A DNA stretch of 64,000 nucleotides from Candidatus Poribacteria bacterium (GCA_963663765.2 CAXXUA010000005.1:192001-256000); one strand, 5' to 3'; counted from the first letter of the stretch, positions 194 through 60,598 are shown. Notes: generated by a model not told the origin, from the letters alone. Numbers and translations: made by a program.

Positions 194-585
194 TTGAATC
201 TCGGATTACGCGAATAAGACATTTGCATTAGGATTTTTGCTTGTTTTTTTGTCTGAACCAGGATTTACAGATTTTCAGGATAAGACCTCTTCATTAGGTT
301 TTTTGCTTGTTTTTTTGTGTGTTTTTTGTTTTGTCTGAACCAGGATTTACAGGATTTACAGATTTTCAGGATAAGACATTTGCAATAGGTTTTATTGTCT
401 GAACCAGGATTTACAAATCAACGGTATGAATGCCTTATGGCATTCCCCGGGATTTACAGATTTTCAGGATAAGACATTTGCAATAGGTTTTTTGGCATAG
501 AATAAGCATTTTATAAGAAAGAGATTCTATTGCAGGTATCTTCTCCACGTAATCCATGAAATCTGTGTAATCGGTGAATCTGATG
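194..585. repeat. Cluster of TTGTCTGAACCAGGATTTACAGATTTTCAGGATAAGAC-family dispersed repeats
   Basis: Near-identical units at about 249, 331 and 395; further copies at about 2937, 3060, 23601, 23720 (inverted), 38386, 40200 and 60375 (inverted). Confidence 0.9.
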
Positions 586-611
586 CATGGTTTGTTTTTG
601 ATTTAATTTTT

Positions 612-2771
612 TCATGATTTCTTTTGGGGGACGCCGCCGATGTGCTTTTCAGGGTCCCATTTTTCTTTTGGAATGCCCATTGCCCAGAATAGGTGTTTGC
701 CGGTGCCGACAGTGCTGTTTTCTTTCTGACTTAGCAGCAGATAGGCTGTGCTGTCTATGCCGTGATGGTCGCCTTTTATTGCCTCGTCGTCTTTGCCGGT
801 ACCCGTGAGTTTTTCTTCGTAGGTGCAGGTTAGGAACTCATCGGTGACGTCAAGAGGACGATATTCGTTTCTGAGGTCTTCGTCGGGGTCGTAGACAAAT
901 CTTTCACGGAAGAAAGAGATTACGGGTTTGCCTGTTGAGTCTACCCTTAGACGTTGTTTGATGATGTCGATTTGCGCGATACGCGATTTTTTGGGTTCCT
1001 GTATTCTGAATCCTGCTTTGCGAAGCTGCGCGATTTCGTCTTGGTCGGCATTGTCTACGGAGACATATCTGAAAGTTTCGTCATCCTTGCAGTTTGCTTT
1101 GATAAGTTCTATAGAATTCGGGGACTGTGAGTTTTGTTTTGTATATTTCTTTGTATGAATAGAGGCGTTTGGCTTTGTCGCGTGCCCACCAGATGCAACT
1201 TGCTGGATTTCGGAAACCCCAGTCTATACTCAGGTAGCGTACCCATTTTTTTGGGATTTTGAAGTTGTCAATGATGTGGATGTCTGGTGAGAATTTCTCA
1301 AATACGAGTCCTTCTGCTGATACCCACACGCCTTCGTAGCCACGTTTGTATCGCATGCCTTCAAGGTTTCTCAGTTTTTCCACACGTCTGTGAGTTCTCC
1401 AGTTTCTTGGTCGTAGATTTCGGGGTTGTCCCTGTATGTTATCTCAAAGTATTCAATTTTTCCTGCTTTGGTCTGTTGGCGATTCCAGTGGTTCGGTGTA
1501 CTTGGGTTGCAGTCGCCGAGTAGGAATGCAATTGGGAGGACTCCTGTCCGTTCGGAAACTCTGGCGGTGAGTTCGTCCCATCTGTCAAAGGTTAGGAGTT
1601 CCGCTTGGTTGACGAAAGCTGCGTCGAAGAAGTCGCTGAGAAGGTTATTGGTTTTGTCAAGACCGTTCATGTAAATTCTGCTTCCGTTCCAGTATTCGTA
1701 AAATGAGGGTTGTTCGCCACCGTATTTTGCGATGGGTGTTGGGTTCGGAACGTCTATCCTTTTGGGTTTGAAGCCGAGATATTTTTCGTAGGTTGGGATG
1801 ATATTGTGAAATATTCTGTTATGGTATCTGTGGATGAAGGTGAGTCGTGCGCCGGGGTAGTTTCTTGCGAGGTGGTCTATGTATGCGACGCAGCTAAAGG
1901 TTTTGCCTGCGTCATAGGTGCCGCCGACTATTTTGACGGGTGCGTGTGAGTTGAAGACATCCTGCATTTGTCCGTAAGGTTTGAAGCCTTTCGGGTGGTA
2001 TTGGATGATGGGTTTGGGTTGCTTGAGGATTGTTGGTTGATCGGTGATTATTCTTATGTTTTGATCAATGGTATTGTTTTCTGTATCGGGGTTGGAAACC
2101 CCTCTCACCAGAGGTTCGGGGAGGTTCTGTTCGTATTCCTGTATGTCGTGGTGCAGGTGTATAAGTATTGGTGGGTTTTCGGTTTCGGTTGCGTTTTCAT
2201 GTTCTAAGGCGAGTTCTTCCTTTTGATATGCCTTTCGTGTGATGGTTGCTTTGGTGTCGTAGCCGCGTGTTTCTATGTTTTCGCGCCTTGTGTGAATGTC
2301 ATAAGAGCGAATCTCTCTGTCAAAATCGTCGATGTAAAAGAATAATTCCTCAATGTTATTTTTTGGATCGAAGTTTTCTTTAATCGCTAATATGCTTTCA
2401 TTGGTGTCTTCTAACTCTTCAAAATGATGTTGTTCTACCGTAGCATAGATATCGTATTCTCCAGGTTCTGGTCAGTCTTTGTTTTTGTCTGCACGCATTT
2501 GCGTTATGATCGTGGCTGCTTGTTTCTTGTTCAGAGATTGTTTGTAGCTTACATAGGCGTTGGTGTCAAAGCCGCGCGTTTCTATGTTTTTTCTTTTTTT
2601 CATGATGTCATAGGTGCGCGACAATCTATGTTTTCGTTGTTTTGCCTTTTTTAGGAGTTTCAGGTCATCTGGGGTTTTTTTCCCTTTTTTGAAGTGTCTG
2701 ATTACATCATGGATTATGTTCCAAAGTAATCTATAGACTTCAAATTGGCGTTGGAAGGTTTGTTGTTGCAT
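612..2771 (-). pseudogene. Disrupted phage terminase large subunit (PBSX/Terminase_6-like) with a long N-terminal extension
   Basis: ORF 2771-2472 reads in frame through one TGA into ORF 2108-1371 (Walker A GTYDAGKT, Walker B-like AAFVNQAE, coupling motif DCNPS). A frameshift near 1383 leads to the nuclease part (SIDWGFRNP). A 1-nt insertion near 1111 leads to a frame ending ...GDHHGIDSTAYL...QKKS* at 612. Confidence 0.85.
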
Positions 2772-3188
2772 GTTTTTGTCCTCAAAGGTTTGTTAGGAAT
2801 GAAGCACAAACTAACAGTTTGTGCTTCAAAGATCAGTAATGATGTTATTATTATAATTGGTGGTGGGATATGGATGGGAGGTTATGTGGGGATGAGGACA
2901 AGGGATTTACAATAGATATACATTGGATTTGGAGGATTGTCTGAACCAAGATTTGCAGATTTTCAGGATAAGACATCTGCATCTGATTTTATAGCATAGA
3001 ATAAGCATTTTATAAGTAAGACGATTATTGGTGCAATCTTTTCCGTGTCATCTGTGATTTTGTCTGAACCAGGATGGACAAATCAACGGTATGAATGCCT
3101 TATGGCATTCCCCGGGATTTTGAGATTTTCAGGATTTACCCCATCAAGGTTTTTGAATTGTGCATTTCGCGTCATCCATGATTCAGAA

Positions 3189-5004: not shown

Positions 5005-5126
5005 CAGGACTTATGTATTTTTCATGATTTCATCAAGAATTATGACGAAAATGATGTAAGTATCAGCATTTTTTAGGTTTCCAGCGTGCTTACAAAGCTC
5101 GCATACCGTTCGGTACGTAAGTCCTG
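5005..5126. mobile_element. MITE with CAGGACTTACGCA-type terminal inverted repeats (family A)
   Basis: Ends CAGGACTTATGTA...TACGTAAGTCCTG; interior shared with copies at 9963, 11715, 23899 and 24281; imperfect 6-bp flank duplication ATAGGA/AGAGGA. Confidence 0.85.
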
Positions 5127-5137
5127 AGAGGAGATAA

Positions 5138-6245
5138 ATGTTAACAGATTTAAAGCCTGCAGTTGATTTAGTTACTACGAGGCTTCATGAGCTTCGGGGG
5201 TATCTTTGACCTTCCGACGAAACAGCAAGAGTTAGAGGAACTTGAAAAAGAGACGATGTCTACAGGTTTTTGGGGTAACTCTCAACGAGTCCAAACTGTG
5301 CATCAACGTATTTCAATTCTTAAAGAGGAAATAGGAGAATATGACAAGTTAAGTAGTGCGATTGATGATTTACAGACATTACTTGAGCTTGGCATAGAAG
5401 AAGATGAGGAGAGCATAGAATCAGAGATTCAGAATGGGTTATCCATTGTTAATAAGAAGTTTGAGAAGCTTGAACTCCAAATCATGTTGGATGGTGAGTT
5501 TGATGAGAACGATGCGATTCTGAGCATTCATCCGGGTGCGGGAGGTGTTGATGCGCAGGATTGGGCAGGCATGTTGATGCGTATGTATCTGCGTTGGTGT
5601 GATCAGCGTGGTTATGCGACTGATGTTGTTGATCTGACTGCAGGTGATGAGGCAGGTATCAAGGGTGCGACATTTTTGGTGAAAGGCACTTTTGCGTATG
5701 GTTACCTGAAAGCAGAATCCGGAGTGCATCGGCTTGTCAGACTTTCTCCTTACGATTATAACAAACGGAGGCATACATCTTTTGCAGCATTGAAAGTTAC
5801 GCCTGAGATTGACGATAGTGTTGAAGTAGAGATCAATGCTGAAGATCTTCGGATTGATTGCTATCGTGCGAGTGGTGCTGGTGGTCAACATGTGAATGTG
5901 ACGGATTCGGCGGTACGTATTACACATTTGCCGACTAACATCATGGTGCAATGCCAGAATGAACGTTCACAGCACAGAAATCGTGAAACTGCTATGAAGG
6001 TGTTACGTTCGCGTTTGTATAATCATTTTAGGGCGCAACAAGAGGCAGAACTTGCTAAACTTCAACCGGAGAGAAGGGATATAGATTTCGGCAGCCAAAT
6101 CCGTTCTTATGTGTTACATCCGTATCAACGTGTGAAAGACACCAGAACAAATGTTGAAACTGGTAATGTTGATGCTGTCTTGAACGGTGAAATTCATGTG
6201 TTTATTGAGAGTTTTTTGAAAATGAAACCTACAGAAACGAAATGA
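5138..6245 (+). CDS. prfB: Peptide chain release factor 2 with programmed +1 frameshift
   Basis: ATG at 5138 after GAGGAG; codon 23 CTT followed by TGAC at 5204-5210, preceded by SD-like CGGGGG; GGQ motif and SPY recognition loop (SPF in E. coli). Confidence 0.97.
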
Positions 6246-10097: not shown

Positions 10098-11183
10098 ATG
10101 AAACTAAACATAATAGAAGCGTTAGCATTTTTTGATTTTCCGATAGAACAATTTCACGATAGAAGCATTCGTTGGTTGCTTGAAGACAAAGAAAATGTCA
10201 AAGGGCTTTTTGAAATTCTCTCAACACATCTGGTAGAACAGATAGATTTTTCGCAACTCACGCTTATCAACAAGACTTATATTCCTGACAACTTGCGCAA
10301 ACAAGAGTCTGACATGATATGTTCTGTTCCGTTTCGTGGTGAGTCGGAAACTGAGAAGTTATTGATTTATATCCTGATAGAACACCAATCCACAGTAGAC
10401 ATATCCATGGGGTATCGTGTATTATTTTATATGACGCAGATATGGGATGCGCAGCGGCGTGATTGGGAATCCAATAACCTTCCGAAAAGTCAGTGGCGTT
10501 TGCAGCCGATTGTTCCGATTGTGTTATATACAGGGGATGGAAAATGGAAGCATCCGCTGACTCTGCATGCGATGATGGATGTGCCAGAGCCGTTAAAAGG
10601 TTTTGTTCCATCTTATGATATATTATTTCTGAATGTGAAGGGTACGGATAGGTCTGACCTTACGCGAACTGATCATCCATTCGGTTGGCTACTGACTGTG
10701 TTGCAAAAGGAACATGGGAGTATAAATGAGTTAATGAGTGCAATATCAGAAGCCGTTAGACATATTGATACGCTTGATGCTGATGATGTACAGCAATGGC
10801 AACGCGCGGTCTTTTATCTCTATTTGCTGATAATGCATCGTCGTCCACCAACTGACCACGAAGTATTGAAATCGTTGGTACGAGAAAACATACAAAATAC
10901 TGTTCATCAAGAGGAGGAAGAACTAATGGAAAGGACTATGGCTGAACATCTCATAAAACAAGGTATTGAACAAGGTTTTGAGCAAGGCATTGAAAAAGGT
11001 GAGAAACGCGGTAAGATACAAGCTAAACGTGAGACACTTTTGAAAATGCTTGATCTGCGTATCGGTTCTGTGCCAGTTTCTGTAGCGAATAAAGTTTCAA
11101 GGATGCGGAGTCTTACTCGCCTGGACTCTCTTTTGGAACAGGTTGCTACTGCTAATGTGCTGGATGATATTGATTGGAAATGA
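10098..11183 (+). CDS. Rpn family recombination-promoting nuclease (YhgA-like PD-(D/E)XK)
   Basis: ESDMI..., YILIEHQST, PIVLYTG motifs; C-terminal GIEQG/GIEKG repeats. Confidence 0.92.
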   Translation: MKLNIIEALAFFDFPIEQFHDRSIRWLLEDKENVKGLFEILSTHLVEQIDFSQLTLINKTYIPDNLRKQESDMICSVPFRGESETEKLLIYILIEHQSTVDISMGYRVLFYMTQIWDAQRRDWESNNLPKSQWRLQPIVPIVLYTGDGKWKHPLTLHAMMDVPEPLKGFVPSYDILFLNVKGTDRSDLTRTDHPFGWLLTVLQKEHGSINELMSAISEAVRHIDTLDADDVQQWQRAVFYLYLLIMHRRPPTDHEVLKSLVRENIQNTVHQEEEELMERTMAEHLIKQGIEQGFEQGIEKGEKRGKIQAKRETLLKMLDLRIGSVPVSVANKVSRMRSLTRLDSLLEQVATANVLDDIDWK

Positions 11184-11627
11184 TGATTTTGTGTTCAGAA
11201 TGCGACTTGTATGTATATGGCTGCTGATAATGCATCGTCGTCCACCAACTGACCACGAAGTATTGAAATCGTTGGTACGAGAAAACATACAAAATACTGT
11301 TCATCAAGAGGAGGAAGAACTAATGGAAAGGACTATGGCTGAACATCTCATAAAACAAGGTATTGAACAAGGTTTTGAGCAAGGCATTGAAAAAGGCATT
11401 GAAAAAGGCATTGAAAAAGGTGAGAAACGCGGTAAGATACAAGCTAAACGTGAGACACTTTTGAAAATGCTTGATCTGCGTATCGGTTCTGTGCCAGTTT
11501 CTGTAGCGAATAAAGTTTCAAGGATGCGGAGTCTTACTCGCCTGGACTCTCTTTTGGAACAGGTTGCTACTGCTAATGTGCTGGATGATATTGATTGGAA
11601 ATGATGATTTTGTGTTCAGAATGCGAC
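10825..11627 (+). repeat. Tandem duplication of the rpn 3' end (10825-11206 and 11222-11627)
   Basis: Copies look identical except for 24 extra bp (two additional GIEK units) in copy 2; 15-bp junction. Confidence 0.97.
11323..11604 (+). CDS. Standalone copy of the Rpn C-terminal domain (predicted RpnS-type antitoxin, 93 aa)
   Basis: ATG preceded by GAGGAGGAAG; same SD/ATG exists inside rpn at 10911-10928. Confidence 0.7.
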   Translation: MERTMAEHLIKQGIEQGFEQGIEKGIEKGIEKGEKRGKIQAKRETLLKMLDLRIGSVPVSVANKVSRMRSLTRLDSLLEQVATANVLDDIDWK

Positions 11628-11714
11628 ATGTCTATTTATTGATTTTGGTATAGGTTTTTGTGGTAAGATGTGTATTTACGAAGGACAATATCCGAATTTG
11701 AAATGCATATCAAA

Positions 11715-11907
11715 CAGGACTTACGCAGTTTTCATGATTTAAACAAGAATTGTGATGAAAATGATGGAATTTTCAGAAATACTTATGTAGCCAGCGAGCT
11801 TACAAAGCACCAAATCAAGTAATCAACGGTATGAATACCTTATGGTATTCCCCGGGTATAAATGCCATTTAGGCATTCCCCGCATACCATTGGGTACGTA
11901 AGTCCTG
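11715..11907. mobile_element. Family A MITE carrying nested hairpin insertions
   Basis: CAGGACTTACGCA...TACGTAAGTCCTG flanked by 5-bp duplication TCAAA. Confidence 0.9.
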
Positions 11908-11992
11908 TCAAATTCACAATATAATTTACTAACACTGATTGTTTATTAGGCTACATTTGCCTTTAAAAACTTTTTTACGAATTCCAAAATAT

Positions 11993-13462
11993 ATGAAATT
12001 TGAATGGTTTGTAGCCTCACGTTATTTACTTTCACGTAGAAAACAGTCGTTTATCTCGATCATCAGTATCATTTCAATTGCAGGTGTTGGTCTCGGTGTT
12101 GCGACGGTGATATTAGTGATTGCTGTGCTTGATGGTGTTGAACATGGACTTAGAGATAGGTTTCTTTCGAATGAGGCACATGTCGTCCTACGATTAATTG
12201 GTAACAATTTCTTCAGTGATTATCAAGATAAAATTGAACGAATTACGAATGTTGGGGGTGTTGTAGCTGCGTCACCCGTTGTGTATTCACAGATGGGTGT
12301 TTTCCAAACGGGGAGTGAAGGTATAAAGGACACTATTTTTGTGAAAGGCATAGATACGGTGCAAGAGGATGAAGTGACGGGTTTTTCACATTTTGTTGAG
12401 GGTTCGGTAGACTTTCAGGTATCCCCATTGATAGAGGAAGCAGCACTCAGAGAAGGTGAGACGATTGCAGGAGGTATGGTGGTTGGTTCTCGCTTGGCGG
12501 CACGTTTGGGGATCGGAGTGGGTGATGTTTTAAGGCTTGTGGTAAGTCTTGAGGAGAATCCAGGTTCTGTTGGATCCCCTACTTTCTTGGTTGACTTTTC
12601 AAATTTTGTTATTATCGGATTCTACGAATCAGAACTTGCGGTCTACGACAATCAAATTGCGTATATTGCAAAGGAAACTGCGCAAGAACTTTACAAGGCA
12701 AAAGACAAAGTTAATGTAATTTTGGTGAAATTAGAAGATGCGGAGATGGCATCTGAACTCAGTGTATTGATAGAAGATGCTGCGCAGTTTTCAGAAATCA
12801 TTGAAATGCCGATAACGACGACGTGGTTAGAGACGCACGCACCATTGTTTGCTGCGCTGAAGTTGGAAAAGATCGCAACAGTCATTATTGAGGCACTTAT
12901 CATATTGGTTGCTGCTTTTAATATTGCGAGTACGCTAATCATGACGGTGATGGAGAAGACACGTGATGTAGGTACTTTGCGTACTCTGGGTGCATCTCGT
13001 GGAAACATCTTGAAGATTTTTATGATTCAAGGCAGTGTGATCGGTATGTTAGGAACAGTTGCTGGTTCAGCATTAGGTCTGGGTCTGTGTTGGTTGTTGA
13101 GTAATAATGTTGTCAGACCGTCTCCGTTATATGCGTTTGGTGCTATTGCGGTTCTTATTATTTTTCAGGTAGTCATTGCTTTCAGACGTTTGATACCTTA
13201 CGGAACAGTGAGAAAGTTGGGTATGTCAGTTTTCTGGATAGTTGTTGTGGGTTTTGTGTTATACTGCTTTGTTAAACCTATCTCTTTGAAGGAGTTGGGT
13301 TTAAGCGGAATCTATCAAATGAATGAACTTCCAATCAGGGTGAATTGGTTATTTGTGGGTTTCATTAACTTACTCTCCTTTGTAATATGTTGGTTGGGTA
13401 CTATCTATCCTGCATGGCAAGCATCAAATTTGAAACCTATTGAAGCGTTGCAATATGAATAG
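11993..13462 (+). CDS. lolE: Lipoprotein-releasing ABC transporter permease (LolC/E family)
   Basis: RYLLSRRKQSFISIIS N-terminus; VAAFNIASTLIMTVMEK and YPAWQAS...PIEAL motifs; precedes lolD. Confidence 0.9.
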   Translation: MKFEWFVASRYLLSRRKQSFISIISIISIAGVGLGVATVILVIAVLDGVEHGLRDRFLSNEAHVVLRLIGNNFFSDYQDKIERITNVGGVVAASPVVYSQMGVFQTGSEGIKDTIFVKGIDTVQEDEVTGFSHFVEGSVDFQVSPLIEEAALREGETIAGGMVVGSRLAARLGIGVGDVLRLVVSLEENPGSVGSPTFLVDFSNFVIIGFYESELAVYDNQIAYIAKETAQELYKAKDKVNVILVKLEDAEMASELSVLIEDAAQFSEIIEMPITTTWLETHAPLFAALKLEKIATVIIEALIILVAAFNIASTLIMTVMEKTRDVGTLRTLGASRGNILKIFMIQGSVIGMLGTVAGSALGLGLCWLLSNNVVRPSPLYAFGAIAVLIIFQVVIAFRRLIPYGTVRKLGMSVFWIVVVGFVLYCFVKPISLKELGLSGIYQMNELPIRVNWLFVGFINLLSFVICWLGTIYPAWQASNLKPIEALQYE

Positions 13463-13537
13463 AAAAGTCTAGAAAGCAAGAAGAGGCACAACCTAACAGG
13501 TTATGCTACAGTGTTTGATATAATGTCGTAGGTTTCA

Positions 13538-14245
13538 ATGGAAAACTTAATAAGAATTGACAATTTACGCAAATCGTTTTATGATGGTGACTCTGAACTC
13601 CAAGTTCTTAAGGGTGTGAATCTTGATGTTCGTAAGGCTGAGATACTTGCGATCATGGGTGCATCGGGAGTAGGTAAGAGTACTTTGTTGCATCTATTGG
13701 GAACACTTGATCGTCCAACAGCTGGAAACATCTATTACGAGGAACAAGATATAACGGCATTCTCTGAGCGAGACCTTACTCGTTTTAGAAATGAAGCGAT
13801 TGGATTTGTATTTCAGTTTCACCAATTGTTGCCAGAATTTACTGCATTAGAGAATGTTGCGATGGGTGGTTTAATCCGTAATGCGAAGGGTTTTGTAGCA
13901 GTTAATGGAAGCAGTTTACCCCATAGCGAAGTCAATGAAACAGCTGAACATCTTCTTGATAGTGTTGGTCTTTCAGAACGTCTTGAACATTATCCGAGCC
14001 AACTATCGGGTGGAGAACGACAGAGAGTTGCTATTGCCAGAGCCCTCATCAATCAACCTACGGTTGTGCTTGCAGATGAACCGACAGGTAACATAGATGA
14101 TAAGACGAGTGAATCAGTACTTGATGTATTGCAGGATATCAACGAGCGTCTCAATCAGACTTTTGTGATTGTGACGCATGACTCCCGTCTATCGGCACGT
14201 GCGCACCGAATGGTTCAACTTGTGGATGGAAGAATTGGTGACTAG
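13538..14245 (+). CDS. lolD: Lipoprotein-releasing ABC transporter ATP-binding protein
   Basis: GASGVGKST, LolD motif GFVFQFHQLL, LSGGE and DEPTGN. Confidence 0.93.
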   Translation: MENLIRIDNLRKSFYDGDSELQVLKGVNLDVRKAEILAIMGASGVGKSTLLHLLGTLDRPTAGNIYYEEQDITAFSERDLTRFRNEAIGFVFQFHQLLPEFTALENVAMGGLIRNAKGFVAVNGSSLPHSEVNETAEHLLDSVGLSERLEHYPSQLSGGERQRVAIARALINQPTVVLADEPTGNIDDKTSESVLDVLQDINERLNQTFVIVTHDSRLSARAHRMVQLVDGRIGD

Positions 14246-14285
14246 GAAAAATAAATGACACTTGTTATATAGGAAGGTATAGGTA

Positions 14286-15167
14286 ATGTTGATTTATGTC
14301 GATGGAGAATATTTTTCACCGGAGGAAGCAAAGCTTTCAGTATTTGATCACGGTTTATTGTATGGTGATGGTGTATTTGAAGGCATTCGGTGTTACAATG
14401 GATATGTATTTAAACTGGATGAACACTTAGCAAGGCTGTATGATTCTGCTAAATCTCTTATGTTAAAGATTCCTATTCCGATTGAGGTAATGAAGGAAAG
14501 TGTTCTTGAAACGCTCCGTCGCAATCAACTTCGCGAAGGTTATATCCGTATGGTTGTAACCCGTGGCATTGGTGATTTAGGACTTGATCCGGCAAAATGC
14601 CCTCGTCCGTCAGTCATAATTATTGCGGACAAAATCACGTTATATCCGCAACATTACTATGAAAATGGCTTGGAAATTGTCACAGTTTCAGTTAGAAGGA
14701 ATTATCCTGAAGCGGTCAATCCTCGCATTAAATCGTTAAATTACCTGAACAACATCCTTGCGTTAATAGAAGCGAAGCAATCTGGTGCTGTGGAAGCGCT
14801 GATGCTGAATGCAGATGGATATGTTGCGGAATGTACGGGTGACAACATATTTTTTGTAAGGAATGAGGTAATTGTTACGCCCCCGGCGCATCTTGGTATT
14901 CTTGAAGGTGTTACACGGAATTGTGTGATCTCCTTGGCGCGCGAGGCTGGATTTCAAGTTGAGGAACGTGTTTTTACCCGACATGATATTTATATTGCCG
15001 ATGAATGTTTTTTAACAGGAACAGCAGCGGAAGTGATTCCAGTGGTCAAACTTGACCAACGCGTTATTGGTAATGGTGAACCTGGCAAGGTAACGCAGAA
15101 GCTGATTGATGCCTTCCGTCATTATGCAAACAACTTTGGTACACCTATATTTTCTAAGGATGAATGA
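14286..15167 (+). CDS. ilvE: Branched-chain amino acid aminotransferase
   Basis: YGDGVFEG, KSLNYLNN, LEGVTR and FLTGTAAEV motifs. Confidence 0.95.
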   Translation: MLIYVDGEYFSPEEAKLSVFDHGLLYGDGVFEGIRCYNGYVFKLDEHLARLYDSAKSLMLKIPIPIEVMKESVLETLRRNQLREGYIRMVVTRGIGDLGLDPAKCPRPSVIIIADKITLYPQHYYENGLEIVTVSVRRNYPEAVNPRIKSLNYLNNILALIEAKQSGAVEALMLNADGYVAECTGDNIFFVRNEVIVTPPAHLGILEGVTRNCVISLAREAGFQVEERVFTRHDIYIADECFLTGTAAEVIPVVKLDQRVIGNGEPGKVTQKLIDAFRHYANNFGTPIFSKDE

Positions 15168-15228
15168 AACAAAACAACGGAACAAATCAAACCACCTGAA
15201 ACGCAATTATTGAAGGAGAATATCTATC

Positions 15229-17670
15229 ATGTCCGCACGAAAAAAATCGCTTCTTACCCCTATCATTAGTATATTGATGGTTTTGATTCTTTTGGTTTTA
15301 CCGAGTTTCACTGTATTTGCTGAAGAGACACCGAATACACCGTTTGGACCGCAACCTGCAGAAGAAACAGCATCAGACGAATCTGTTAAAGAACTCTCTT
15401 CCTCCACATCAGTTGATGATATGTTTGTGGTCAAGAGGATTGAGTTTGAGGGTATTCAAACACTTCGCAAGGAGATGTTGGAGACGTTGATACAAACGCA
15501 GGTTGGTCAAGAAATCTCTGATGAGTTGATTACCAAGGATATTGAAAACCTGTATAAAGATACAGGGTTTTTCTATGACATTAAAGTGGATGTGAAGAAG
15601 GCTGAAGGTGGGGGTTTTGTTGTAACTTATATCCTTGATGAAAGTCCTAAAGTTGAAAGTATCAACATTATAGGGAATGATGAGATAGACATTGGGAAAA
15701 TCATGGATAAGGTGACGCTTCGTCGATCAGAGATTTTCAATGATCGTCTGCGTTGGGAGAGTGAACGTGCTATCAGAAAACTCTACCATGAAAAAGGGTA
15801 TTATCTTGTAAAGATTCAAGTGCATATAGATGTGAATTCGGAGGAGAACACGAATCAGATTACATTTGAGATAGCAGAGGGTCCGCGTGTAAGGATCACA
15901 GAGATCAATTTTATAGGAAACGATCAAGTAGAATCCAAGAAACTGCGCAAGAAGATGAAAACGCGTATGGGTAAGCACTTTGATGAGATTTTGTTTGAGG
16001 AGGAGGACTTAGGTTTTACTCTTAGAAATTACTATCAGGACCTTGGTTTTGCGCAGGTAAAGATTTTAGGACATGAGAAACGGTTCACTGAAGACAAAAC
16101 CGGGTTGATTCTTGATATTACAGTGGATGAGGGTGCTCAATTCATTCTTGGTAAATACTACATTAAGCTTGAATCTGGAGAGAAGATAGTATTTTCAGAG
16201 AAGAAGATTCTGGATATGTTGGATCCTGCTGAAGGTGAAGTATTCAATAGGGATATATTTGAAGAATCCGTTGCGCAACTCCAACAGACTTATCTTGATA
16301 AAGGTTATCTTCTTGCGGAAGTTGTGCCACAACCGCATTTTGATGAGGTGACTGCGTCTGTGGACATTATCTTGAAAATAAATCAAGGAGATGTTATAAT
16401 CATTGACAATGTGCCGATTCAGGGATTGGAAAAGACGAATGAAAATGTGATTCGTCGTGAGTTGAATTTTTTAAATATCAAGTCTGATGAGTTGCTTGAT
16501 GTGAAGTCGCTTCGTAAAGCGCGGCAGCGTCTTTTTCAAATGGGACCGTTTATACGTGCGGTAGATTTTGTTCCGAGTGATACGGAAAACGATAGTCGCA
16601 AGAATCTTGTCGTCAATATTGCGGAATCCCCTACGACTGGTACATTGAGTGTAGGTGGTGGTTATGGTAGTGAAGGTGGTATTTTCGGTACTGCTGAGAT
16701 TGGTCAGCACAACCTATTTGGTCGTGCGTATCGTATACATTTGAAGGGTGAACTTGGTACGCGTGATCACTATACAGCAGAGGCGAGTTTTGGTACACCT
16801 TGGATATTTGGTACGCCGACACGTCTGAATGCGCGTATTTACAACAATCGTAGGTTTCGTCGTTATTATGGCAATGTTGGTACCATTCTTGATCCGGAAG
16901 ATTACTTGAGAGATAGGTATATATGGGATACGCGTGGTGGTTCAATTTCATTAGGTCGTCCGATTGCTTATGATATTGACTTGTCGGTAAGGTTTCGTAA
17001 TGAATTGATAAAAGCGAACACCCCTGAAGAGCAGTTGTTCAATCGGTCAACAAGGAGTATTCTTTTCGCTGTAGGTCGCGATACGCGTGATTATCGAACT
17101 TCGTTGTATGATCCTATGGGTGGTAGTTCTAATAGCATTTCCTACGAGTATTCTGGTGGCTTTTTAGGTGCGGACAACGAGTTCCAGAAGTATACAGCGG
17201 ATACGAGTTGGTTTTTCAACCCGTGGTGGAATCATGTTTTTGCTATCCATGCACGTGCGGGTTATATGAAGAGTAGGGATGAGGATAATAGAGAACTATT
17301 CTATGAAAGGTTTTATTTGGGTGGTGTAGACACCGTACGTGGTTATGAGGACTGGGAGATTTATCCTGATCCGCTTGATTCCGAAGTGCCGAATCCGTAT
17401 GGGGGTAACAAAGTATTTTTCTCTAATTTTGAGTATCGTGTACAAGTTTCACCACAGTTGACGACAGCACTATTCTTTGATGTTGGTCAGGTATGGGATG
17501 AAAGCGTTGTAAACCCATTTCGTCAAATTAATTTGAAACGTGGTGCGGGTGTAGAAGCGCGTTTACAGATGTTGGGCATGTTGGCAAGGTTTGGTTGGGG
17601 TTATGCGTTTGATCGTCAGAATCGCGCACCTCAAGGTAAGTTTTATTTTACGATTGGTCCCGGATTTTAG
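15229..17670 (+). CDS. bamA: Outer membrane protein assembly factor BamA
   Basis: Signal peptide, POTRA repeats, VRGY motif, terminal Phe; adjacent to skp and lpxD. Confidence 0.95.
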   Translation: MSARKKSLLTPIISILMVLILLVLPSFTVFAEETPNTPFGPQPAEETASDESVKELSSSTSVDDMFVVKRIEFEGIQTLRKEMLETLIQTQVGQEISDELITKDIENLYKDTGFFYDIKVDVKKAEGGGFVVTYILDESPKVESINIIGNDEIDIGKIMDKVTLRRSEIFNDRLRWESERAIRKLYHEKGYYLVKIQVHIDVNSEENTNQITFEIAEGPRVRITEINFIGNDQVESKKLRKKMKTRMGKHFDEILFEEEDLGFTLRNYYQDLGFAQVKILGHEKRFTEDKTGLILDITVDEGAQFILGKYYIKLESGEKIVFSEKKILDMLDPAEGEVFNRDIFEESVAQLQQTYLDKGYLLAEVVPQPHFDEVTASVDIILKINQGDVIIIDNVPIQGLEKTNENVIRRELNFLNIKSDELLDVKSLRKARQRLFQMGPFIRAVDFVPSDTENDSRKNLVVNIAESPTTGTLSVGGGYGSEGGIFGTAEIGQHNLFGRAYRIHLKGELGTRDHYTAEASFGTPWIFGTPTRLNARIYNNRRFRRYYGNVGTILDPEDYLRDRYIWDTRGGSISLGRPIAYDIDLSVRFRNELIKANTPEEQLFNRSTRSILFAVGRDTRDYRTSLYDPMGGSSNSISYEYSGGFLGADNEFQKYTADTSWFFNPWWNHVFAIHARAGYMKSRDEDNRELFYERFYLGGVDTVRGYEDWEIYPDPLDSEVPNPYGGNKVFFSNFEYRVQVSPQLTTALFFDVGQVWDESVVNPFRQINLKRGAGVEARLQMLGMLARFGWGYAFDRQNRAPQGKFYFTIGPGF

Positions 17671-17899
17671 GTTAAATTTTTATATTAAGCATATAATTAA
17701 TAGGATATTTTACGCATCAAACATTTAGTTTGTGCTACAACACCCTCGTTATGTTTGGTATCGTAACCGAACCTAACATAATGTCCTATTAATTCTAAAG
17801 TCTATTATATGAAATGAATTCTGAGGTTGATCGTATCGTTTGATTGGAAATTATAATTATAGAGTATTTAGTATTCTGCATGAAATAAAAGGATATATT

Positions 17900-18499
17900 A
17901 TGAAGAAATTTTTGTTTGTTGTTTTCCCACTGATGCTGATTTTGTTCATATCCGGTAGCATTGGTCAAGAGTCGTTTAAAATAGGAGTTGTTGACACGCA
18001 GAAAGTGTTAGAAAACTATGAAAAATATATTGAAGCGGATAAGTTACTGACGACAGCTGAAGCGCGTTTGAAAGAGAAACTTGATGCTATGGGTAAGGAA
18101 ATTGAGACGTTACAAGAGCGAAAAGAGAAAACGGAGCTTTTTGTGGAGGAAGCGCAGACTGCAGAATTAGAGGATGATATTAAAAAGAAACAGTTGGAAG
18201 CACAACAAGAACTCAATCGTGGTCGGGAAGTACTAATACAAAAGCAGAAGGAACTGTTGGAACCGATTTTTAAGGAAATTGAGGAACTGATTATTGAAAC
18301 AGGCAAAGCTGAAAAATACGACCTTATTCTCAATAAACAAGCTGTGCTGTTTGTTAATGAGAAATATGATTTGACCAACAAACTGATTATAGCTATCAAT
18401 GAAAAACCTAAAAAAGGTGATGCAGCCGAACAGGACGAGTCTGAAACGAAAGAGGACAATACTGAAAAACCACTCGAACAGAATGATGAGAAGAAATAG
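17900..18499 (+). CDS. skp: OmpH/Skp periplasmic chaperone
   Basis: Signal peptide, KIGVVD motif, coiled coil, YDLIL...YDLT; bamA-skp-lpxD synteny. Confidence 0.92.
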   Translation: MKKFLFVVFPLMLILFISGSIGQESFKIGVVDTQKVLENYEKYIEADKLLTTAEARLKEKLDAMGKEIETLQERKEKTELFVEEAQTAELEDDIKKKQLEAQQELNRGREVLIQKQKELLEPIFKEIEELIIETGKAEKYDLILNKQAVLFVNEKYDLTNKLIIAINEKPKKGDAAEQDESETKEDNTEKPLEQNDEKK

Positions 18500-18556
18500 T
18501 ATCTGAATTCTCTTAGCAGTAATGACATAGGTTTTTTCTTTTGCGATGAGGTTTTT

Positions 18557-19615
18557 ATGAGTATTAAACTCAAAGATATTTGTGAACATTTGGGTGGTGA
18601 ACTTTCTGGTGATGGAGAAATTGAAATCACAGGAGTTTCTGGTATTGTAGAGGCGTTACCCAGCCAAATTACCTTTGTTGCGGATACGAAATATCTTTCT
18701 GCTATAGCCACGACTCAGGCATCGGCGATCATCATTGGGCGCGGTGTTTCCGGTAATGGCAAACCGACGATATGTGTAGACAATCCGTATTGGAGTTTTG
18801 TCAAGGTAATGGAGTTATTCATCTCGGATTCGGAGCAGCAGACTCACCGCGGCATCCATGAAACTGCGATTATTGGAGAGAATGTTTCATTAGGAGAAGA
18901 CGTTACCATAAAGGCATATAGCGTGATTGGTGACAATGTAGAGATTGGCGATAGAACAGTCATTATGCCGCTTGTCTATGTTGGGAATGGTAGCAAAATT
19001 GGCAGTGATGGAATGGTCTACTCTCAAGTCAGTATTCGTGAGAACATCACTATTGGCGATCGTGTCGTCCTTCATAGTGGTGCGGTCATCGGTAGTGATG
19101 GTTTTGGTTTTACGCCGGATCCTATACAAAAGCGTCCTTACAAAATACCCCAAATAGGGACTGTTGTGGTTGAAGATGATGTCGAAATAGGTGCGAATAC
19201 GACGATAGATAGAGCAACGCTCTCTGAGACGGTGATTAAGCGTGGTACGAAACTTGACAACCTTGTTCAGATTGCCCACAATGTAGTTCTTGGGGAAGAT
19301 TGCTGTCTTGCTGCACAGACGGGTATTGCTGGCAGTTCTATTCTTGGTGATCGCGTTAATATTGCGGGTCAGTCTGGTGTGATTGGTCATCTTAGGGTTG
19401 GTGAAAATACGGTTATCTACTCGAAATCTGCTGTCACGAAGAACATTCCGCCCGGTAGCCATCTTTCCGGCATCCCTGCCCGTCCGCACAAACAGGAGTT
19501 ACGTTCTCAAGCAATAGCACGTAAGCTGCCGGAAGTGATGAAAGAGATTTCAGAGTTGCAGAAACGCGTTGAGGAACTTGAGGAAAATCTTCAAGGCTTA
19601 GAAGAAGATTCCTAA
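18557..19615 (+). CDS. lpxD: UDP-3-O-(3-hydroxyacyl)glucosamine N-acyltransferase
   Basis: Hexapeptide repeats; GSDGFGF, IGANTTIDR and KLDNLVQIAHN motifs. Confidence 0.97.
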   Translation: MSIKLKDICEHLGGELSGDGEIEITGVSGIVEALPSQITFVADTKYLSAIATTQASAIIIGRGVSGNGKPTICVDNPYWSFVKVMELFISDSEQQTHRGIHETAIIGENVSLGEDVTIKAYSVIGDNVEIGDRTVIMPLVYVGNGSKIGSDGMVYSQVSIRENITIGDRVVLHSGAVIGSDGFGFTPDPIQKRPYKIPQIGTVVVEDDVEIGANTTIDRATLSETVIKRGTKLDNLVQIAHNVVLGEDCCLAAQTGIAGSSILGDRVNIAGQSGVIGHLRVGENTVIYSKSAVTKNIPPGSHLSGIPARPHKQELRSQAIARKLPEVMKEISELQKRVEELEENLQGLEEDS

Positions 19616-19849
19616 TTGGTTGCTAATTAATCTAATCCCTCCTATGAAAGAAGAATACCAGCTATTTCCATAAGATGGTTCTGAATCGCGGAGTACACAG
19701 ATTTCACGGAATACGCGTATTTCGCTGATAAGAGATCTTTCTTTAAACAACTCTCACTAATAACCAATGTGGTTGTGAAAATGAGTGTATAGCACCTAAA
19801 ACCCATTCTGTGCTTCTGGCAAAGACATGGGTAAAAAAACTAAAAATTG

Positions 19850-20503
19850 ATGAAACTTCTATCCATAAATGTATCAAAACCGAAACCGATTACCTACAAT
19901 GGTAGGATTGTTTATACTGGTATTTTTAAAGAACCGGTGTCAGAGACGGTGATGCTGAGAGAGAAAAATATTGATGGGGATGGACAAGGGGATTTGAAGG
20001 TACACGGCGGCACCTATAAAGCAATCTATGGTTATCCCTTTGAACATTATGCATATTGGCAGCAGGAATTGAATAGAGAGGACTTGTCTTATGGTCAATT
20101 CGGTGAAAATCTGACTGTTGAGGGTATGTTGGAATCGGAAGTTAACATCGGTGATGTGTTTCAGATAGGTTCAAGTGTGCGATTACAGATAACACAACCG
20201 CGAGTGCCGTGTTACAAATTAGGACATAAAATGGGAATGGCAGAATTTCCTAAACAGTTCTTGCAGAGTCGATGTGTTGGTTTCTATTTTCGAGTTCTTG
20301 AAGAAGGAGAAATCACTGCAGGTGATACAATTTCTTGTGTTGAGAATGCGCCAGAGTCAATGAGTGTCACAGAGATAGTCAACTTACGATATTTTGACAC
20401 TAACAATTATGAGAAGATAGCGAAAGCCAGAAAACTACCTGCTCTATCACCGAGTTGGAAAGAGGACTTTGTACGAATCTTGAAGGCAAAGGATTTGTTG
20501 TAG
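19850..20503 (+). CDS. MOSC domain protein (YiiM-like)
   Basis: [18 protein letters not shown] and QPRVPCYKL motifs; C-terminal 3-alpha domain. Confidence 0.92.
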
Positions 20504-20508
20504 ACACT

Positions 20509-21255
20509 ATGGAAATATTTGAAGTAAGAACTAAACTGGGTACGAGTACGGCAGCTGCAATGGCTGCAAGTACAAAACTGCAGGCAGCCATCAATACCAA
20601 TGGACATGCGAGTTTCATAGTTGCTACGGGGGCCTCACAGTTTGATTTCCTGAATGCATTGACTGCTGATTCCTCTATAGATTGGTCAAAAACAACGATG
20701 TTCCATCTGGACGAATATATCGGTATTTCTGATACACATCCAGCCAGTTTCTGTAAGTATCTTCAGGAGAGATTGGTTGATATTGTTCAGCCAAAAATAG
20801 TGCATTTCCTGAATGGTGAAGCGGACGATCCACAGGCAGAATGTGACAGACTCAACCGAATTATCTCACAACACACGATTGATGTTGCATTTGTTGGTAT
20901 CGGTGAAAATGGTCATCTTGCTTTCAATGACCCTCCTGCTGACTTTGAGACAGAGGAACCGTATATCGTCGTGGCGTTAGATGAGGCGTGCCGTTTGCAG
21001 CAGGTTGGTGAAGGTTGGTTCAAAGATTTGTCTGAGGTACCGACACATGCAATCTCAATGTCTATCCGCCAGATTATGAAATCGGAAGCGATTATTTGTA
21101 CGGTGCCTGATGAACGCAAGGCGGAAGCTGTACGAAATTGCTTATTTGGTGAAATTTCCTCAATGCATCCTGCGTCTATTTTGCAGAATCATCCGGATTG
21201 TAGCATCTTCCTTGATGCTGGGTCGGCATCTTTGTTGATGTCTGTTTCACCATAG
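20509..21255 (+). CDS. nagB: Glucosamine-6-phosphate deaminase family protein
   Basis: ATGASQ, FHLDEY and [13 protein letters not shown] motifs. Confidence 0.85.
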
Positions 21256-21342
21256 TCATCTGTTCACTCTCCGATCGTTCGTGCTATCCAAACGGTTGAA
21301 TCGGATGTCTGTTTCACCATAATCATCTGTTCACCATAGTAC

Positions 21343-21386
21343 AAAAAGAAATCGGATGGGAAATATAACCCACCCGATTTCTTTTT
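21343..21386. terminator. Bidirectional intrinsic terminator between nagB and groEL
   Basis: AAAAAGAAATCGG...CCGATTTCTTTTT inverted repeat with A/T tracts on both sides. Confidence 0.85.
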
Positions 21387-21431
21387 ATGATCGTATATTT
21401 CTCATAGATGTCTATGAGAGAATGTCCGACA

Positions 21432-23069
<1,638 letters not shown>

Positions 23070-23073
23070 TTAC

Positions 23074-23367
23074 TTAATTAGTTACCTTGGCTAAGATATC
23101 ATCTTCGCGCAAAATGAGAAATTCATCATTTTCATAAGTTACTTCTGTGCCACCATATTTTGCGAACAGAACTTTGTCTCCGACTTGAACATCAACAGAT
23201 TGTCGTTCACCGTTTTCAAGGATGCGTCCTTTTCCAACAGCGACAACTTCGCCTTCTTGAGGTTTTTCTTTGGCAGTGTCTGGGATAATGATCCCACCAC
23301 TGGTTTTTTGTTCGTCCTCTTCAGAACGTTTGACGAGGATTCGATCGCCAAGAGGTACAAGTGCCAT
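23074..23367 (-). CDS. groS: Co-chaperonin GroES
   Basis: PLGDRILV and [16 protein letters not shown] motifs. Confidence 0.99.
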
Positions 23368-23453
23368 ATCTATAATTCCCTCCTATGGGTAAAAAGTTTA
23401 TGGGTATAATATGAACCCGTATCTGATAATTTTTCTTATACGATGTTTTATAT

Positions 23454-23470
23454 AGCAAGATGTGTGCCAA
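23454..23470 (-). promoter_or_regulatory. sigma54 (-24/-12) promoter of groES-groEL
   Basis: Minus strand TTGGCAC-ACATC-TTGCT, matching TGGCAC-N5-TTGC. Confidence 0.8.
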
Positions 23471-23535
23471 TTTTGGGAATGTAGGTATAGACGCATTTGG
23501 TGTGGTATGATGTGATTTTTGACTTGGCAAATGTG

Positions 23536-23589
23536 TGACATTTTGTCATATCGTCACAGATTTGGAATAGTTAGTGTGCCATTTTGACA
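23536..23589. promoter_or_regulatory. Putative enhancer-binding-protein sites (TGxCA-N3-TGxCA, two copies)
   Basis: TGACATTTTGTCA at 23536-23548 and TGCCATTTTGACA at 23577-23589, upstream of the sigma54 promoter. Confidence 0.55.
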
Positions 23590-23753
23590 TAGGCAGTTTA
23601 TTGTCTGAACCATGATTTTCAGGATTACCAGATATTCAGGATTTACCTCATCAAGGGTTTTTGATGTGTGTTTTTGCTCTCTTTTGGAATAGGATTTGAT
23701 GAAACAGATCTTGATAATCTACTAATCCTGAAAATCCTGGTTCAGACAAAGAA

Positions 23754-23838
23754 TGAGTTAACTCCCAAAAATATACTAACTCAAGGATTAACAACTGTGA
23801 TAGAATTTACTCAATTAATTGAAAACTGAATAACCCTG
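23754..23838. repeat. 85-bp dispersed repeat, copy 1
   Basis: 81/85 identical to 28845-28929; ends in GAAAACTGAATAACCCTG. Confidence 0.9.
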
Positions 23839-23898
23839 CAAAAAACGCTTGCTTAATGTTAACTTTTTCTGTTATATTAATACTCAGGATTGTACATA

Positions 23899-24019
23899 CA
23901 GACTTGCGCAGTATTCATGATTTAATCAAGAATTGTGACGAAAATGGTGTAATTTTCAGCATATTTTAGGTTTCCAGCGCGCATACAATGCGAGTCTATC
24001 GTAGGGTGCGTATGTCTTG
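23899..24019. mobile_element. Family A MITE with degenerate ends
   Basis: CAGACTTGCGCA...TGCGTATGTCTTG flanked by 7-bp duplication GTACATA. Confidence 0.85.
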
Positions 24020-24041
24020 GTACATAGAATTCATCATTCAT

Positions 24042-24165
24042 TTATCATTCAATATAAGTTATCATTCAATATAAGTTATCATTCAATATAAGTTATCATT
24101 CAATATAAGTTATCATTCAATATAAGTTATCATTCAATATAAGTTATCATTCAATATAAGTTATC
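24042..24165. repeat. Perfect 17-bp tandem repeat (TTATCATTCAATATAAG), 7.3 copies
   Basis: Read directly; no spacers between units. Confidence 0.97.
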
Positions 24166-24280: not shown

Positions 24281-24497
24281 CAGGACTTGCGCAGTTTTAA
24301 TGATTTAATCAAGAATTGTGATGAAAATGATGTAATTTTCAGCATTATTTGTGCTTCCAACGCGCTTACAAAGCACCAATTCAAGAAATCAAGGGTATGA
24401 ATGCCTTTTGGCATTCCCCGGGTATGAATCATGGAGCATGCCATACGCGCATGCTTCTTTAGGCATTCCCCGCCTACCGTTGGGTGCGTAAGTCCTG
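24281..24497. mobile_element. Family A MITE carrying nested hairpin insertions
   Basis: CAGGACTTGCGCA...TGCGTAAGTCCTG flanked by 6-bp duplication TATTAA. Confidence 0.9.
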
Positions 24498-38278: not shown

Positions 38279-38535
38279 TTAATATTCCTCCTGCATTGTA
38301 TTTAGGGATAAGTTTAGCACATTGTGCATGATTCCACAAGTTAAAAGTGAAACAGGGGCAGAGGTGTCTAAAGTTTTTGTTGCTTATCTGAACCAGAATT
38401 TTCAAATCAAGAAATCAACGGTATGAATGCGCCTATGGCATACCTCGTCTTCCGTTTCTGCATTAGTCCTAGCACATTTAAGTATGAAAGTTGAAAGTTT
38501 AGTGGAGCGTTAGTTGCAAGCGGTAGCGGCAGCAT

Positions 38536-45985: not shown

Positions 45986-46118
45986 TAGCATTTATATCAA
46001 GTTTTCTTGTTTTCGCAGTTTTTCCAATATTCCGATACAGTCACGACCGGGAGGTCACTCCTACCATAAGAACCTATGTTAGAATGTGTGATTAATCTAC
46101 ATTTAAATGCTATTAAAT

Positions 46119-60111: not shown

Positions 60112-60598
60112 AGAACATTTTTCTCCAAGTTTTTTTGGTAATTGTATATTAAACTGTTAAGATTGTAAAGGGATTTATTGATAGGAATATTTAGTTTTAT
60201 AAATGTTCGGATTTTCAAAAAAAGAACTCCACGGTAGTAGCGAACCGGGGAATGCCTTTCAGCATTCCCCTGGATTAGTCGATTTCCAGGATTACCTCAT
60301 CAGGTGTTTCAGTTTAGAGTAAGTGTTTCTTAGGAATAGCACACCACTGCCTAAACCTTTTATCCCGATAATCTATAGATCCTGATAATCCTCGTTTAGA
60401 CACAGGACATATACGGTTCACCCTCTCAATTTATGCAAAATTATTTACACTCTCAGCATTCCTTTTAACTTGCAGAAATCAAAAACTTTTGCTAAAATGG
60501 AAAGAAGACAACAATTCTATCATGTTTATCTGCTGACCGATATATTTCAGATAAAACTTTTGGATTTCACAGACAAATTTATATGGGAAGAAGATTGA

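Follow-up and report, generated by a model that had tools for sequence, protein, structure and literature searches.

A tail-plus-hairpin cassette of about 35 nucleotides located within folded repeats of two genera of Candidatus Poribacteria

Elements of ~35 nucleotides (nt) encode nothing yet spread with base-level precision, and their means of movement has been a puzzle since cyanobacterial repeats of this kind were described in 2008. The same question is raised by a 64,000-nt stretch of Candidatus Poribacteria DNA (hereafter, the window), in which one exact 34-mer, AATCAACGGTATGAATGCCTTATGGCATTCCCCG, occurs at positions 416–449 and 3081–3114 inside two copies of another repeat, and recurs with two mismatches at 11821–11854 and 24387–24420: how does so small a sequence come to lie at defined positions within other repeats? 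These four matches were those found in the window at up to three mismatches, compared with none in 100 shuffles. The window belongs to contig C5 of a metagenome-assembled genome (MAG) of a sponge symbiont (hereafter, this genome or G000; 6.35 Mb, 15 contigs, ~41% G+C). An original prediction, made from the sequence of the window, had proposed a minimal non-autonomous element that parasitises other repeats and itself, and had linked its movement to HUH transposases. The many independent kinds of site described below uphold the former proposal, and the latter was not upheld. The observations are probably best explained by a tiny non-coding mobile cassette that is copied as a discrete unit into single-stranded positions of folded repeats.

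The consensus 34-mer is AATCAAC-GGTAT-GAATGCC-N4-GGCATTC-CCCG, and the cassette, which is non-coding and 34–36 nt in size, consists of a 7-nt single-stranded tail (AATCAAC) followed by a 27-nt imperfect hairpin with the parts C-GG, a TAT bulge, GAATGCC, a 4–5-nt loop, GGCATTC, C and CC-G. DNA folding of the copy at 416–449 gave –7.3 kcal/mol (z –3.06), and the predicted single-stranded structure comprised a 4-nt loop closed by a 7-bp stem (GAATGCC/GGCATTC) and an outer 3-bp helix (CGG/CCG) across a TAT/C internal loop, leaving the 5΄ tail AATCAA free. Hereafter, the 8-nt tail, (A/T)AATCAA plus one base, is called the L module; the 27-nt hairpin, GGTAT-stem-loop-stem-CCCC plus one base, is called the R module; E33 denotes the 33-mer AATCAAC..CCCC, and E34 a single 34-nt cassette. 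Because its two ends, AATCAAC.. and ..CCCCG, do not form inverted repeats and its sites show no target duplication, the cassette differs from MITEs (miniature inverted-repeat transposable elements), a class of DDE-transposase derivatives characterized by both features.

In this genome, we detected 205 matches to the element at up to five substitutions, ~457 complete L+R copies (loop length 4 or 5 nt), 204 + 202 perfect GGTAT-7-loop-7-CCC hairpins and 101 exact consensus 34-mers, 75 of which carry the loop TTTT. Only 15 of 255 arrays of these modules fell within crude open reading frames. The stem varies in a compensatory manner: GAATGCT/AGCATTC was found in 25 copies and GAATACC/GGTATTC in 20, one of which is the predicted copy at 11833–11850, while half-changed forms of both variants were present in 3–9 copies each. 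A third compensatory stem, GAACGCC/GGCGTTC, forms a large subfamily in another Poribacteria genome (G102) and is present in G084, G085 and G094 as well. Since each variant may represent one event followed by amplification, we count three covariation events rather than dozens. This pattern of substitutions shows that the hairpin structure matters, the stem being under selection.

We compared filled sites with empty paralogues that match them in an exact 10-nt anchor on each side; one or more such paralogues exist for 132 of 257 arrays. For example, in the loop of a repetitive extragenic palindromic (REP) element, the empty form ACCG-GGAGG-TCGC corresponds to the filled form ACCG-GC-A-E33-GGG-TCGC. 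Clean insertion of CA+E33 at C^G (+35 nt; ^ marks the insertion point) was observed both at site 2 of a MITE of 122 nt (MITE-A) and in the loop of the S-type hairpin, whereas the repeat that we call H1 showed clean insertion of E33+G at A^GG (+34 nt). Within the element's own copies, AATCAA-C-GGTAT is converted to AATCAA-GA-E33-G-GGTAT (+35 nt). Another host, the hairpin AGCACTCC-GCT-GGAGTGC, was found empty 26, 47 and 27 times in three genomes other than this one, and its filled form was CTCC-GG-E33-G-GGAG. A single description covers all of these cases: the unit N-A + E33 + G replaces 1–3 target bases with no duplication, as the original prediction had anticipated on the latter point, and the net gain in length is 33–36 nt. 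The dinucleotide 5΄ of E33 was CA in the 197 copies that follow host DNA, and GA (164), GT (20) or AA (8) in those that follow another L module. The base 3΄ of E33 was G, with C instead before another L module in tandem arrays, and the last base of the outer L module is G, not the C of an intact copy.

The hosts of the 257 arrays are diverse. The most frequent were site 2 of MITE-A (CAAAGCAC^GCCTACCG; 41 arrays), site 1 of MITE-A (CCAGCGC^GCTTACAAAGC; 35), the loop of a CTAC-tagged REP (GCGACC..GGTCGCTCCTAC; 34) and the H1 repeat (GTCTGAACCAGGATTnAC-A-GGATT; 33), followed by host4 (18), a position beside another L/R module (17), the loop of the related S-type hairpin (13) and host5 (9), with 57 arrays in other contexts. 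In total, this genome contains at least eight unrelated host repeats, and many further REP-type hairpins serve as hosts in other species: among 95 copies from other Poribacteria species, the element (E) lies between the arms of many different hairpin repeats, such as GCACTCCGG(E)GGGAGTGC, CACCCCGG(E)GGGGGTG and GAGCGACCTCCA(E)GGGTCGC. A perfect stem of at least 6 bp bridging the element was found for 23 of 93 copies in other species, where the displaced, reversed and shuffled controls gave 1, 8 and 2, and for 29 of 257 arrays in this genome, where they gave 0, 0 and 2. This excess over the controls indicates that targeting of hairpin apices is real, though not universal. Typical sites were a hairpin apex, the centre of a palindrome, the junction of the tandem 9-mers of H1 and the linker 5΄ of the element's own hairpin; in other words, the target rule is hairpin tips or palindrome centres, 5΄ of G. 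The left flanks varied with the host (..ACCGG, ..GCAC, ..GCGC, ..TTTAC, ..AATCAA, ..CTCC) and share no fixed 4–5-nt word.

Two of these hosts illustrate the coexistence of filled and empty copies. The H1 repeat, GTCTGAACCAGGATT, is filled at 416 and 3081 and, as predicted, empty at 343–361; genome-wide, 52 of its 275 copies are filled-like and 223 are empty-like. H1 consists of GTCTGAACCAGGAT followed by 2–4 tandem 9-mers (GGATTnnCA), lies at 250–500 and 2950–3150 of the window and has many copies on contig C6. It also occurs, mostly in one orientation, in nearly all gaps of long arrays of genes for WD40-repeat proteins (C6:33–57 kb, C6:320–375 kb and C4:1159–1165 kb). MITE-A has inverted ends (CAGGACTTACGCA..TGCGTAAGTCCTG) and copies at 5030–5140, 11704–11920 and 24300–24500 of the window. 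It contains two look-alike internal sites that take the cassette, GCGC^GCTTAC and GCAC^GCCTAC, with additional insertion points at consensus positions 109 and 13. Among its 251 copies in the genome, 126 are empty, 97 carry one insertion and 28 carry more.

The element also occupies itself. The numbers of L and R modules per array (nL,nR) were (1,1) in 71 arrays, (2,2) in 69, (2,1) in 43, (3,2) in 11 and (1,2) in 4, and the two counts are correlated. The original prediction had noticed second copies placed in a first one right after AATCAAG; this arrangement is general, with 85+19 copies preceded by an L module and followed by an R module, and the inner R module often differs in type from the outer one. 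The correlated counts, together with the differing R types, indicate that self-insertion at the L–R junction is real. In many arrays (e.g. C3:481560–481700 and window 24421–24472), two more small modules occupy this L–R junction or share the tail. The S-type hairpin has the form AAATCAAC-GCCGAATGCGCC-TAT-GGCATTCGTCG and ends in CGTCG, and a 52-nt 'long R' is a hairpin that holds an inner GAGCATGC..GCATGCTTC hairpin.

If all copies descended from one or two ancestral composites, occupancy should follow the phylogeny of the carrier. We therefore constructed a tree of 248 MITE-A backbones, leaving out the columns around the insertion sites, and counted the changes in occupancy. Site 1 (31 filled copies) required 27 changes, compared with a mean of 29.0 and a minimum of 25 for shuffled labels, and site 2 (78 filled copies) required 67, compared with a mean of 64.5 and a minimum of 55. 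In contrast, two control columns next to the sites required 20 and 22 changes, compared with 63.1 and 40.6 after shuffling. Since the control columns need far fewer changes than shuffled labels, the tree carries signal, and occupancy does not follow it. We further compared the diversity of inserts, chosen by position and length alone, with that of their carriers, and obtained 0.011 (n = 15) and 0.026 (n = 26) for the inserts and 0.075 and 0.105 for the backbones of the same copies; the inserts are thus 4–7 times less diverse. These results show that occupancy is independent of carrier phylogeny and that the inserts are young or constrained relative to their carriers, and the scattered occupancy and low insert diversity together lead us to reject a scenario of few ancestral composites.

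We examined the taxonomic range of the element using the pattern at up to two mismatches, which was found in 82 of 176 Poribacteria genomes: 31 of 39 in genus g1, together with the window's genome, and 50 of 65 in genus g11, with none among the 71 other genomes of the phylum. Copy numbers per genome ranged from 0 to 189, whereas a reversed-pattern control gave 0 in all genomes. A scan of species-representative genomes yielded at least 91 stretches, and among the matches listed, all 80 titles were those of Candidatus or uncultured Poribacteria MAGs; a search of IMG/VR viral contigs with the 33-mer pattern gave no match. The element is accordingly specific to two genera of Poribacteria. In G102, a single contig that is 92% complete, there are 111 copies, about 45 of the listed ones lying within 120 kb (C1:4.35–4.47 Mb), and seven 35-nt units stand head to tail at C1:1044374–1044616. 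Same-genus relatives share 66–79% DNA identity with the window's genes; all 29 non-loop bases of the element are identical across species of both genera, and the dominant loop varies by species. Our literature search found no paper that links Poribacteria with repeats of this kind.

The copies, relatives and empty sites within the window are summarized in Table 1. Those that the original prediction had placed in MITE-A and in a REP were recovered as nested arrays, each with an empty counterpart, the two in H1 proved to be exact 34-mers, and that near 38404 is a variant hairpin. A degenerate inverted copy had been proposed near 60246; a degenerate hairpin without a tail is present there, and whether it is inverted is undecidable because the hairpin is palindromic.

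Table 1. Cassette copies, related hairpins and empty sites in the window (^, insertion point)
Feature	Position	Strand	Details
Single E34	416..449	+	Tail AATCAAC 416–422; hairpin GGTATGAATGCC-TTAT-GGCATTCCCCG 423–449; inside H1 repeat GTCTGAACCAGGATTTACA^GGATTTACAG
Empty H1 site	343..361	+	GGATTTACA^GGATTTACAG; paralogue of the filled site at 416
Second exact E34	3081..3114	+	In another H1 copy, CCAGGATGGACA^GGATTTTGAG
Empty MITE-A core	5082..5108	+	CAGCGTGCTTACAAAGCTC^GCATACCG; neither insertion site occupied
Nested array, MITE-A site 2	11812..11882	+	L AAATCAAG 11812–11819; L TAATCAAC 11820–11827; inner hairpin with compensatory stem GAATACC/GGTATTC 11828–11854; outer 5-nt-loop hairpin 11855–11882
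Nested array, MITE-A site 2	24378..24472	+	Two L modules 24378–24393 (inner one ending in G, a rare variant); 4-nt-loop hairpin 24394–24420; long outer hairpin variant 24421–24472
Nested array in REP loop	29000..29070	+	GCGACCGGC^...^GGGTCGCTCCTAC; L, L, then two hairpins: variant hairpin 29016–29043 and 4-nt-loop hairpin 29044–29070
Two L modules, then related hairpin variant	38404..38447	+	GAATGCGCC-TAT-GGCATAC; left flank H1-like
Empty REP hairpin	46042..46064	+	CGACC-GGGA-GGTCACTCCTAC
Degenerate hairpin relative without tail	60246..60273	undecided	CGGGGAATGCC-TTTC-AGCATTCCCCTGG; beside H1-like GGATTAG repeat

A 2.2-kb segment of the window (562–2805) is duplicated with 90–93% identity at the start of contig C11 (C11:12–3526), and this duplicate ends before reaching either element site. 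The window also contains a thiamine pyrophosphate (TPP) riboswitch at 48066–48168 on the plus strand (72.7 bits against a gathering score of 54.3), which was its sole Rfam match.

These observations show that the tail-plus-hairpin unit is copied as a discrete cassette into the apical loops of REPs, the palindrome centres of MITE-A, the 9-mer junctions of H1 and its own 5΄ linker, all of them single-stranded once the repeats have folded, and we propose that hairpin tips receive it while the DNA is single-stranded. In each case, N-A + 33-mer + G replaces 1–3 target bases; insertion into its own L–R linker gives the L-L-R-R nests, and the 8-nt L and 27-nt R modules are later expanded or lost by slippage. 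Insertion may be driven by a conserved trans-acting activity that recognizes the tail plus the hairpin, a tentative suggestion that we regard as nearly as plausible as its opposite. It comes mainly from the conservation of the sequence: the 29 non-loop bases, including the unpaired tail and GGTAT/CCCC, are kept while genes are ~70–78% identical.

Several observations weigh against the mobile-cassette interpretation as a whole. The junction bases (CA, GA, GT, AA, GG) are non-uniform, which is unusual for a precise enzyme. In 164 of the 257 arrays, both flanks lie in repeated DNA, and just 20 arrays have both flanks at two copies or fewer; the host repeats may account for much of the copy number. 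Identical rare R variants occur in runs of up to six in tandem, and variant L modules also occur in runs; part of the arrays is accordingly plain slippage. At site 1 of MITE-A, 27 of 31 filled copies have C at column 86, compared with 4 of 217 unfilled copies, and at site 2, the GCGC type is never present among filled copies but occurs at least 40 times among unfilled ones. Because flanking bases thus travel with the insert, short-tract copying from filled paralogues may explain part of the spread; the flank pattern fits such conversion or template switching as well as it fits target preference, and within MITE-A, part of the spread probably did arise by short-tract copying. Moreover, we obtained no orthologous before/after pair, and gain is therefore not distinguishable from loss. 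Public contigs break at repeats: those of four runs covering window 10500–30499 break at 11.8, 23.7–24.5 and 29.0 kb, and since their joints come from paralogues, they are uninformative on insertion polymorphism. A metagenome scan with the unique 35-mer beside the 3081 site gave no match. Finally, searches for Y1, IS110 and reverse transcriptase genes and among inter-element genes yielded no candidate partner.

Some of these points also speak for an enzyme-free copy-choice process, a serious contender that we nevertheless judge unlikely. Under this explanation, replication would stall at a folded hairpin, and the nascent strand would switch to another hairpin locus, copy the cassette and a few flanking bases, and return by 1–3 nt of microhomology (G/GG 3΄ of the cassette). 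The targets are indeed hairpin apices or palindrome centres, 1–3 target bases are replaced, the left junction dinucleotide is variable, and the insert at MITE-A site 1 brings a site-2-type flank (the column 86 result above). In addition, element-rich genomes without Y1 and reverse transcriptase exist, and small hairpin modules of several kinds (the S-type, the 5-nt-loop and the long variants) nest in a similar manner. However, if structure alone drove the process, drift would be expected in the unpaired parts, whereas all 29 non-loop positions, including the unpaired AATCAAC and GGTAT/CCCC, are identical across dozens of species, and the element is confined to two genera although REP hairpins are more widespread.

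Mobilization by a Y1 transposase of the HUH class, either a REP-associated tyrosine transposase (RAYT) or the TnpA of an IS200/IS605 insertion sequence (IS), through single-stranded peel-and-paste similar to that of REPs or of palindrome-associated transposable elements (PATEs), would account for the absence of target duplication, the dependence on a hairpin and the stem covariation. This genome has six Y1 (PF01797) loci, with 5–6 Y1 genes including a RAYT, and in genus g1, RAYT is present in 17 of 31 genomes with the element compared with 2 of 8 without it. We nonetheless consider this mechanism improbable. The cassette hairpin is absent from all six Y1 loci, and around the RAYT stands another REP, tagged with CTAC (xxTCGCTCCTAC, dozens of copies in locus L096), with no cassette copy there. 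Across family f1, RAYT was found in 63 of 112 genomes, and it does not follow the distribution of the element: G105 (133 copies), G102 (111), G091 (61), G100 (57), G010 (54) and G093 (50) carry the element without RAYT, whereas nine genomes (G007, G108, G078, G079, G083, G137, G149, G119 and G173) carry RAYT without the element. No Y1 domain of any kind was matched in the element-bearing genomes G102, G010, G094 (17 copies) and G001 (7 copies), nor in G087. Of 22 neighbour pairs less than 400 nt apart in this genome, none formed an inverted doublet such as a REPIN (REP doublet), neither GTAG nor CGTC is present in the 33-mer, and, as noted above, the left flanks have no common word. Element orientation clusters along contigs and agrees with GC skew in 173 cases compared with 82, but gene strand confounds this comparison, and contigs C13 and C15 contradict it; in two single-contig genomes (G090 and G102), whose true origins and termini are not established, orientation does not switch at dnaA or opposite to it. 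The predicted HUH link is thus unsupported, and this genome yielded no TnpA/RAYT or reverse transcriptase gene flanked by the same hairpin.

The RAYT-type gene itself lies at C4:621598–622074 (159 aa from an internal ATG) within L096 (C4:620161–623487), embedded in dozens of alternating GTTCCCTCCTAC, AATCGCTCCTAC and GATCGCTCCTAC REPs, and has orthologues with 88–94% identity in G005, G007 and G108. This genome also contains a 1.75-kb element of the IS200/IS605 type, comprising tnpA (139–162 aa) and a 370-aa neighbour, with three full copies (98% identity) and one interrupted copy (C5:687426–689182, C3:286513–288266, C5:549662–551411 and C5:352867–355941). Its end hairpins, CTGCC-TAAA-GGCAG and CCCA..TGGG, are unrelated to the cassette. 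Retro-mobility was likewise rejected, with no reverse transcriptase match in G000, G102 and G105. No IS110 DEDD gene was found in this genome, and a search for IS91 Y2 gave no match there but is uninformative, since its control was silent too. The genes between neighbouring elements comprise WD40-repeat arrays, housekeeping genes and one DDE transposase.

A motif useful to the host, such as a protein-binding site or a structured RNA that selection maintains and gene conversion spreads, is very improbable. The exact conservation across two genera would fit this possibility, as would the enrichment in divergent intergenic gaps (71 divergent compared with 16 convergent, against a background in which the two are about equal). 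However, species of a single genus carry anywhere between 0 and 189 copies, all copies are missing in 8 of 39 genomes of g1 and 15 of 65 of g11, orientation relative to neighbouring genes follows no rule (86 versus 67), the element sits almost exclusively inside other selfish repeats, and an Rfam scan of the whole window placed no family on it at gathering score. That the copies are mere passengers of few ancestral composites (MITE, REP, H1), amplified through these hosts and through local tandem duplication, is scarcely credible and largely refuted: the repeated flanks, the runs of identical R modules and the 15–18 copies with a TATT loop that lie with identical flanks inside one larger repeat would agree with it, but the unrelated hosts here, the other REP stems in other species, the coexisting empty and filled paralogues, the unclustered occupancy on the MITE-A tree and the low diversity of inserts do not.

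The discrete mobile cassette that we favour is a rare kind of near-minimal mobile DNA, and it brings the behaviour of cyanobacterial small repeats to an unrelated phylum. It explains the build-up of large composite intergenic repeats in sponge symbionts and the breaks of short-read assemblies there. Two popular explanations for such movement, a Y1 HUH transposase and a reverse transcriptase, are tested against here, and the clear anatomy, the clear target rule and the many genomes with and without the element make a comparative search for the responsible activity feasible. A broader idea, possible but on balance doubtful, is that the cassette could be one face of a general growth of DNA at hairpin tips, in which a unit is written into the apical 1–3 bases of any folded repeat, itself included; the agent might be a new structure- and sequence-specific integrase of single-stranded DNA, unrelated to HUH, DDE, DEDD and reverse transcriptase enzymes, or a programmed template switch. 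If so, the 176 genomes of Poribacteria, with their 0–189 copies, would be a system in which to find the partner of very small mobile repeats by association.

Among known systems, insertion sequences of the IS110/IS1111 family reportedly target REPs (as is said to have been described by Tobes and Pareja in 2006), and the cassette resembles them in using REP hairpins as preferred insertion targets. These elements are autonomous, 1–1.5 kb long and encode a DEDD transposase, whereas the cassette is 35 nt and no DEDD gene was found in this genome. PATEs, which derive from IS200/IS605, are hairpin-dependent, move by peel-and-paste and have neither terminal inverted repeats nor target duplication. 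The cassette shares the hairpin dependence and the lack of both features, and a single-stranded substrate is plausible for it; however, it has one hairpin rather than two distinct ends, no fixed 5΄ word and replaced target bases, the end hairpins of the resident IS200/IS605 elements are unrelated to it, and it shows no strand polarity in the genomes compared above, where origins and termini are not established.

REP, bacterial interspersed mosaic element (BIME) and REPIN sequences are associated with RAYT (TnpA_REP) Y1 transposases (Nunvar 2010, PMC2817692; Bertels & Rainey 2011, PMC3116915; Di Nocera 2013, PMC3733652), and according to Di Nocera 2013, the foot of the hairpin bears a tetranucleotide tag, GTAG or CGTC. 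The cassette is similar in being a short extragenic hairpin present in hundreds of copies, with compensatory stem changes, a lineage-specific sequence and no target duplication. It differs in lacking the GTAG/CGTC tag, a flanking RAYT, co-occurrence with RAYT/Y1 and inverted doublets; in other words, it uses REPs as targets and is not one of them.

By description, the closest analogue is the small dispersed repeats (SDRs) of Nostocaceae, notably SDR5. SDRs were reportedly described by Elhai et al. in 2008 from Nostoc punctiforme and Nostocaceae and are said to be 21–27 nt long, compared with 34–36 nt for the cassette from Poribacteria. In the descriptions drawn on here, both are non-coding modules of tens of bases with no known transposase, both insert precisely into other repeats or a palindrome, and both are restricted to a lineage. 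For example, the part of PMC4390886 concerned with SDR5 places its insertion between the third and fourth base of the palindrome HIP1 (highly iterated palindrome 1), and the part of PMC5861425 on distribution states that SDRs were not found in cyanobacteria outside Nostocaceae. Compared with SDRs, the Poribacteria cassette shows a tail-plus-hairpin architecture, targeting of hairpin apices and nesting within itself.

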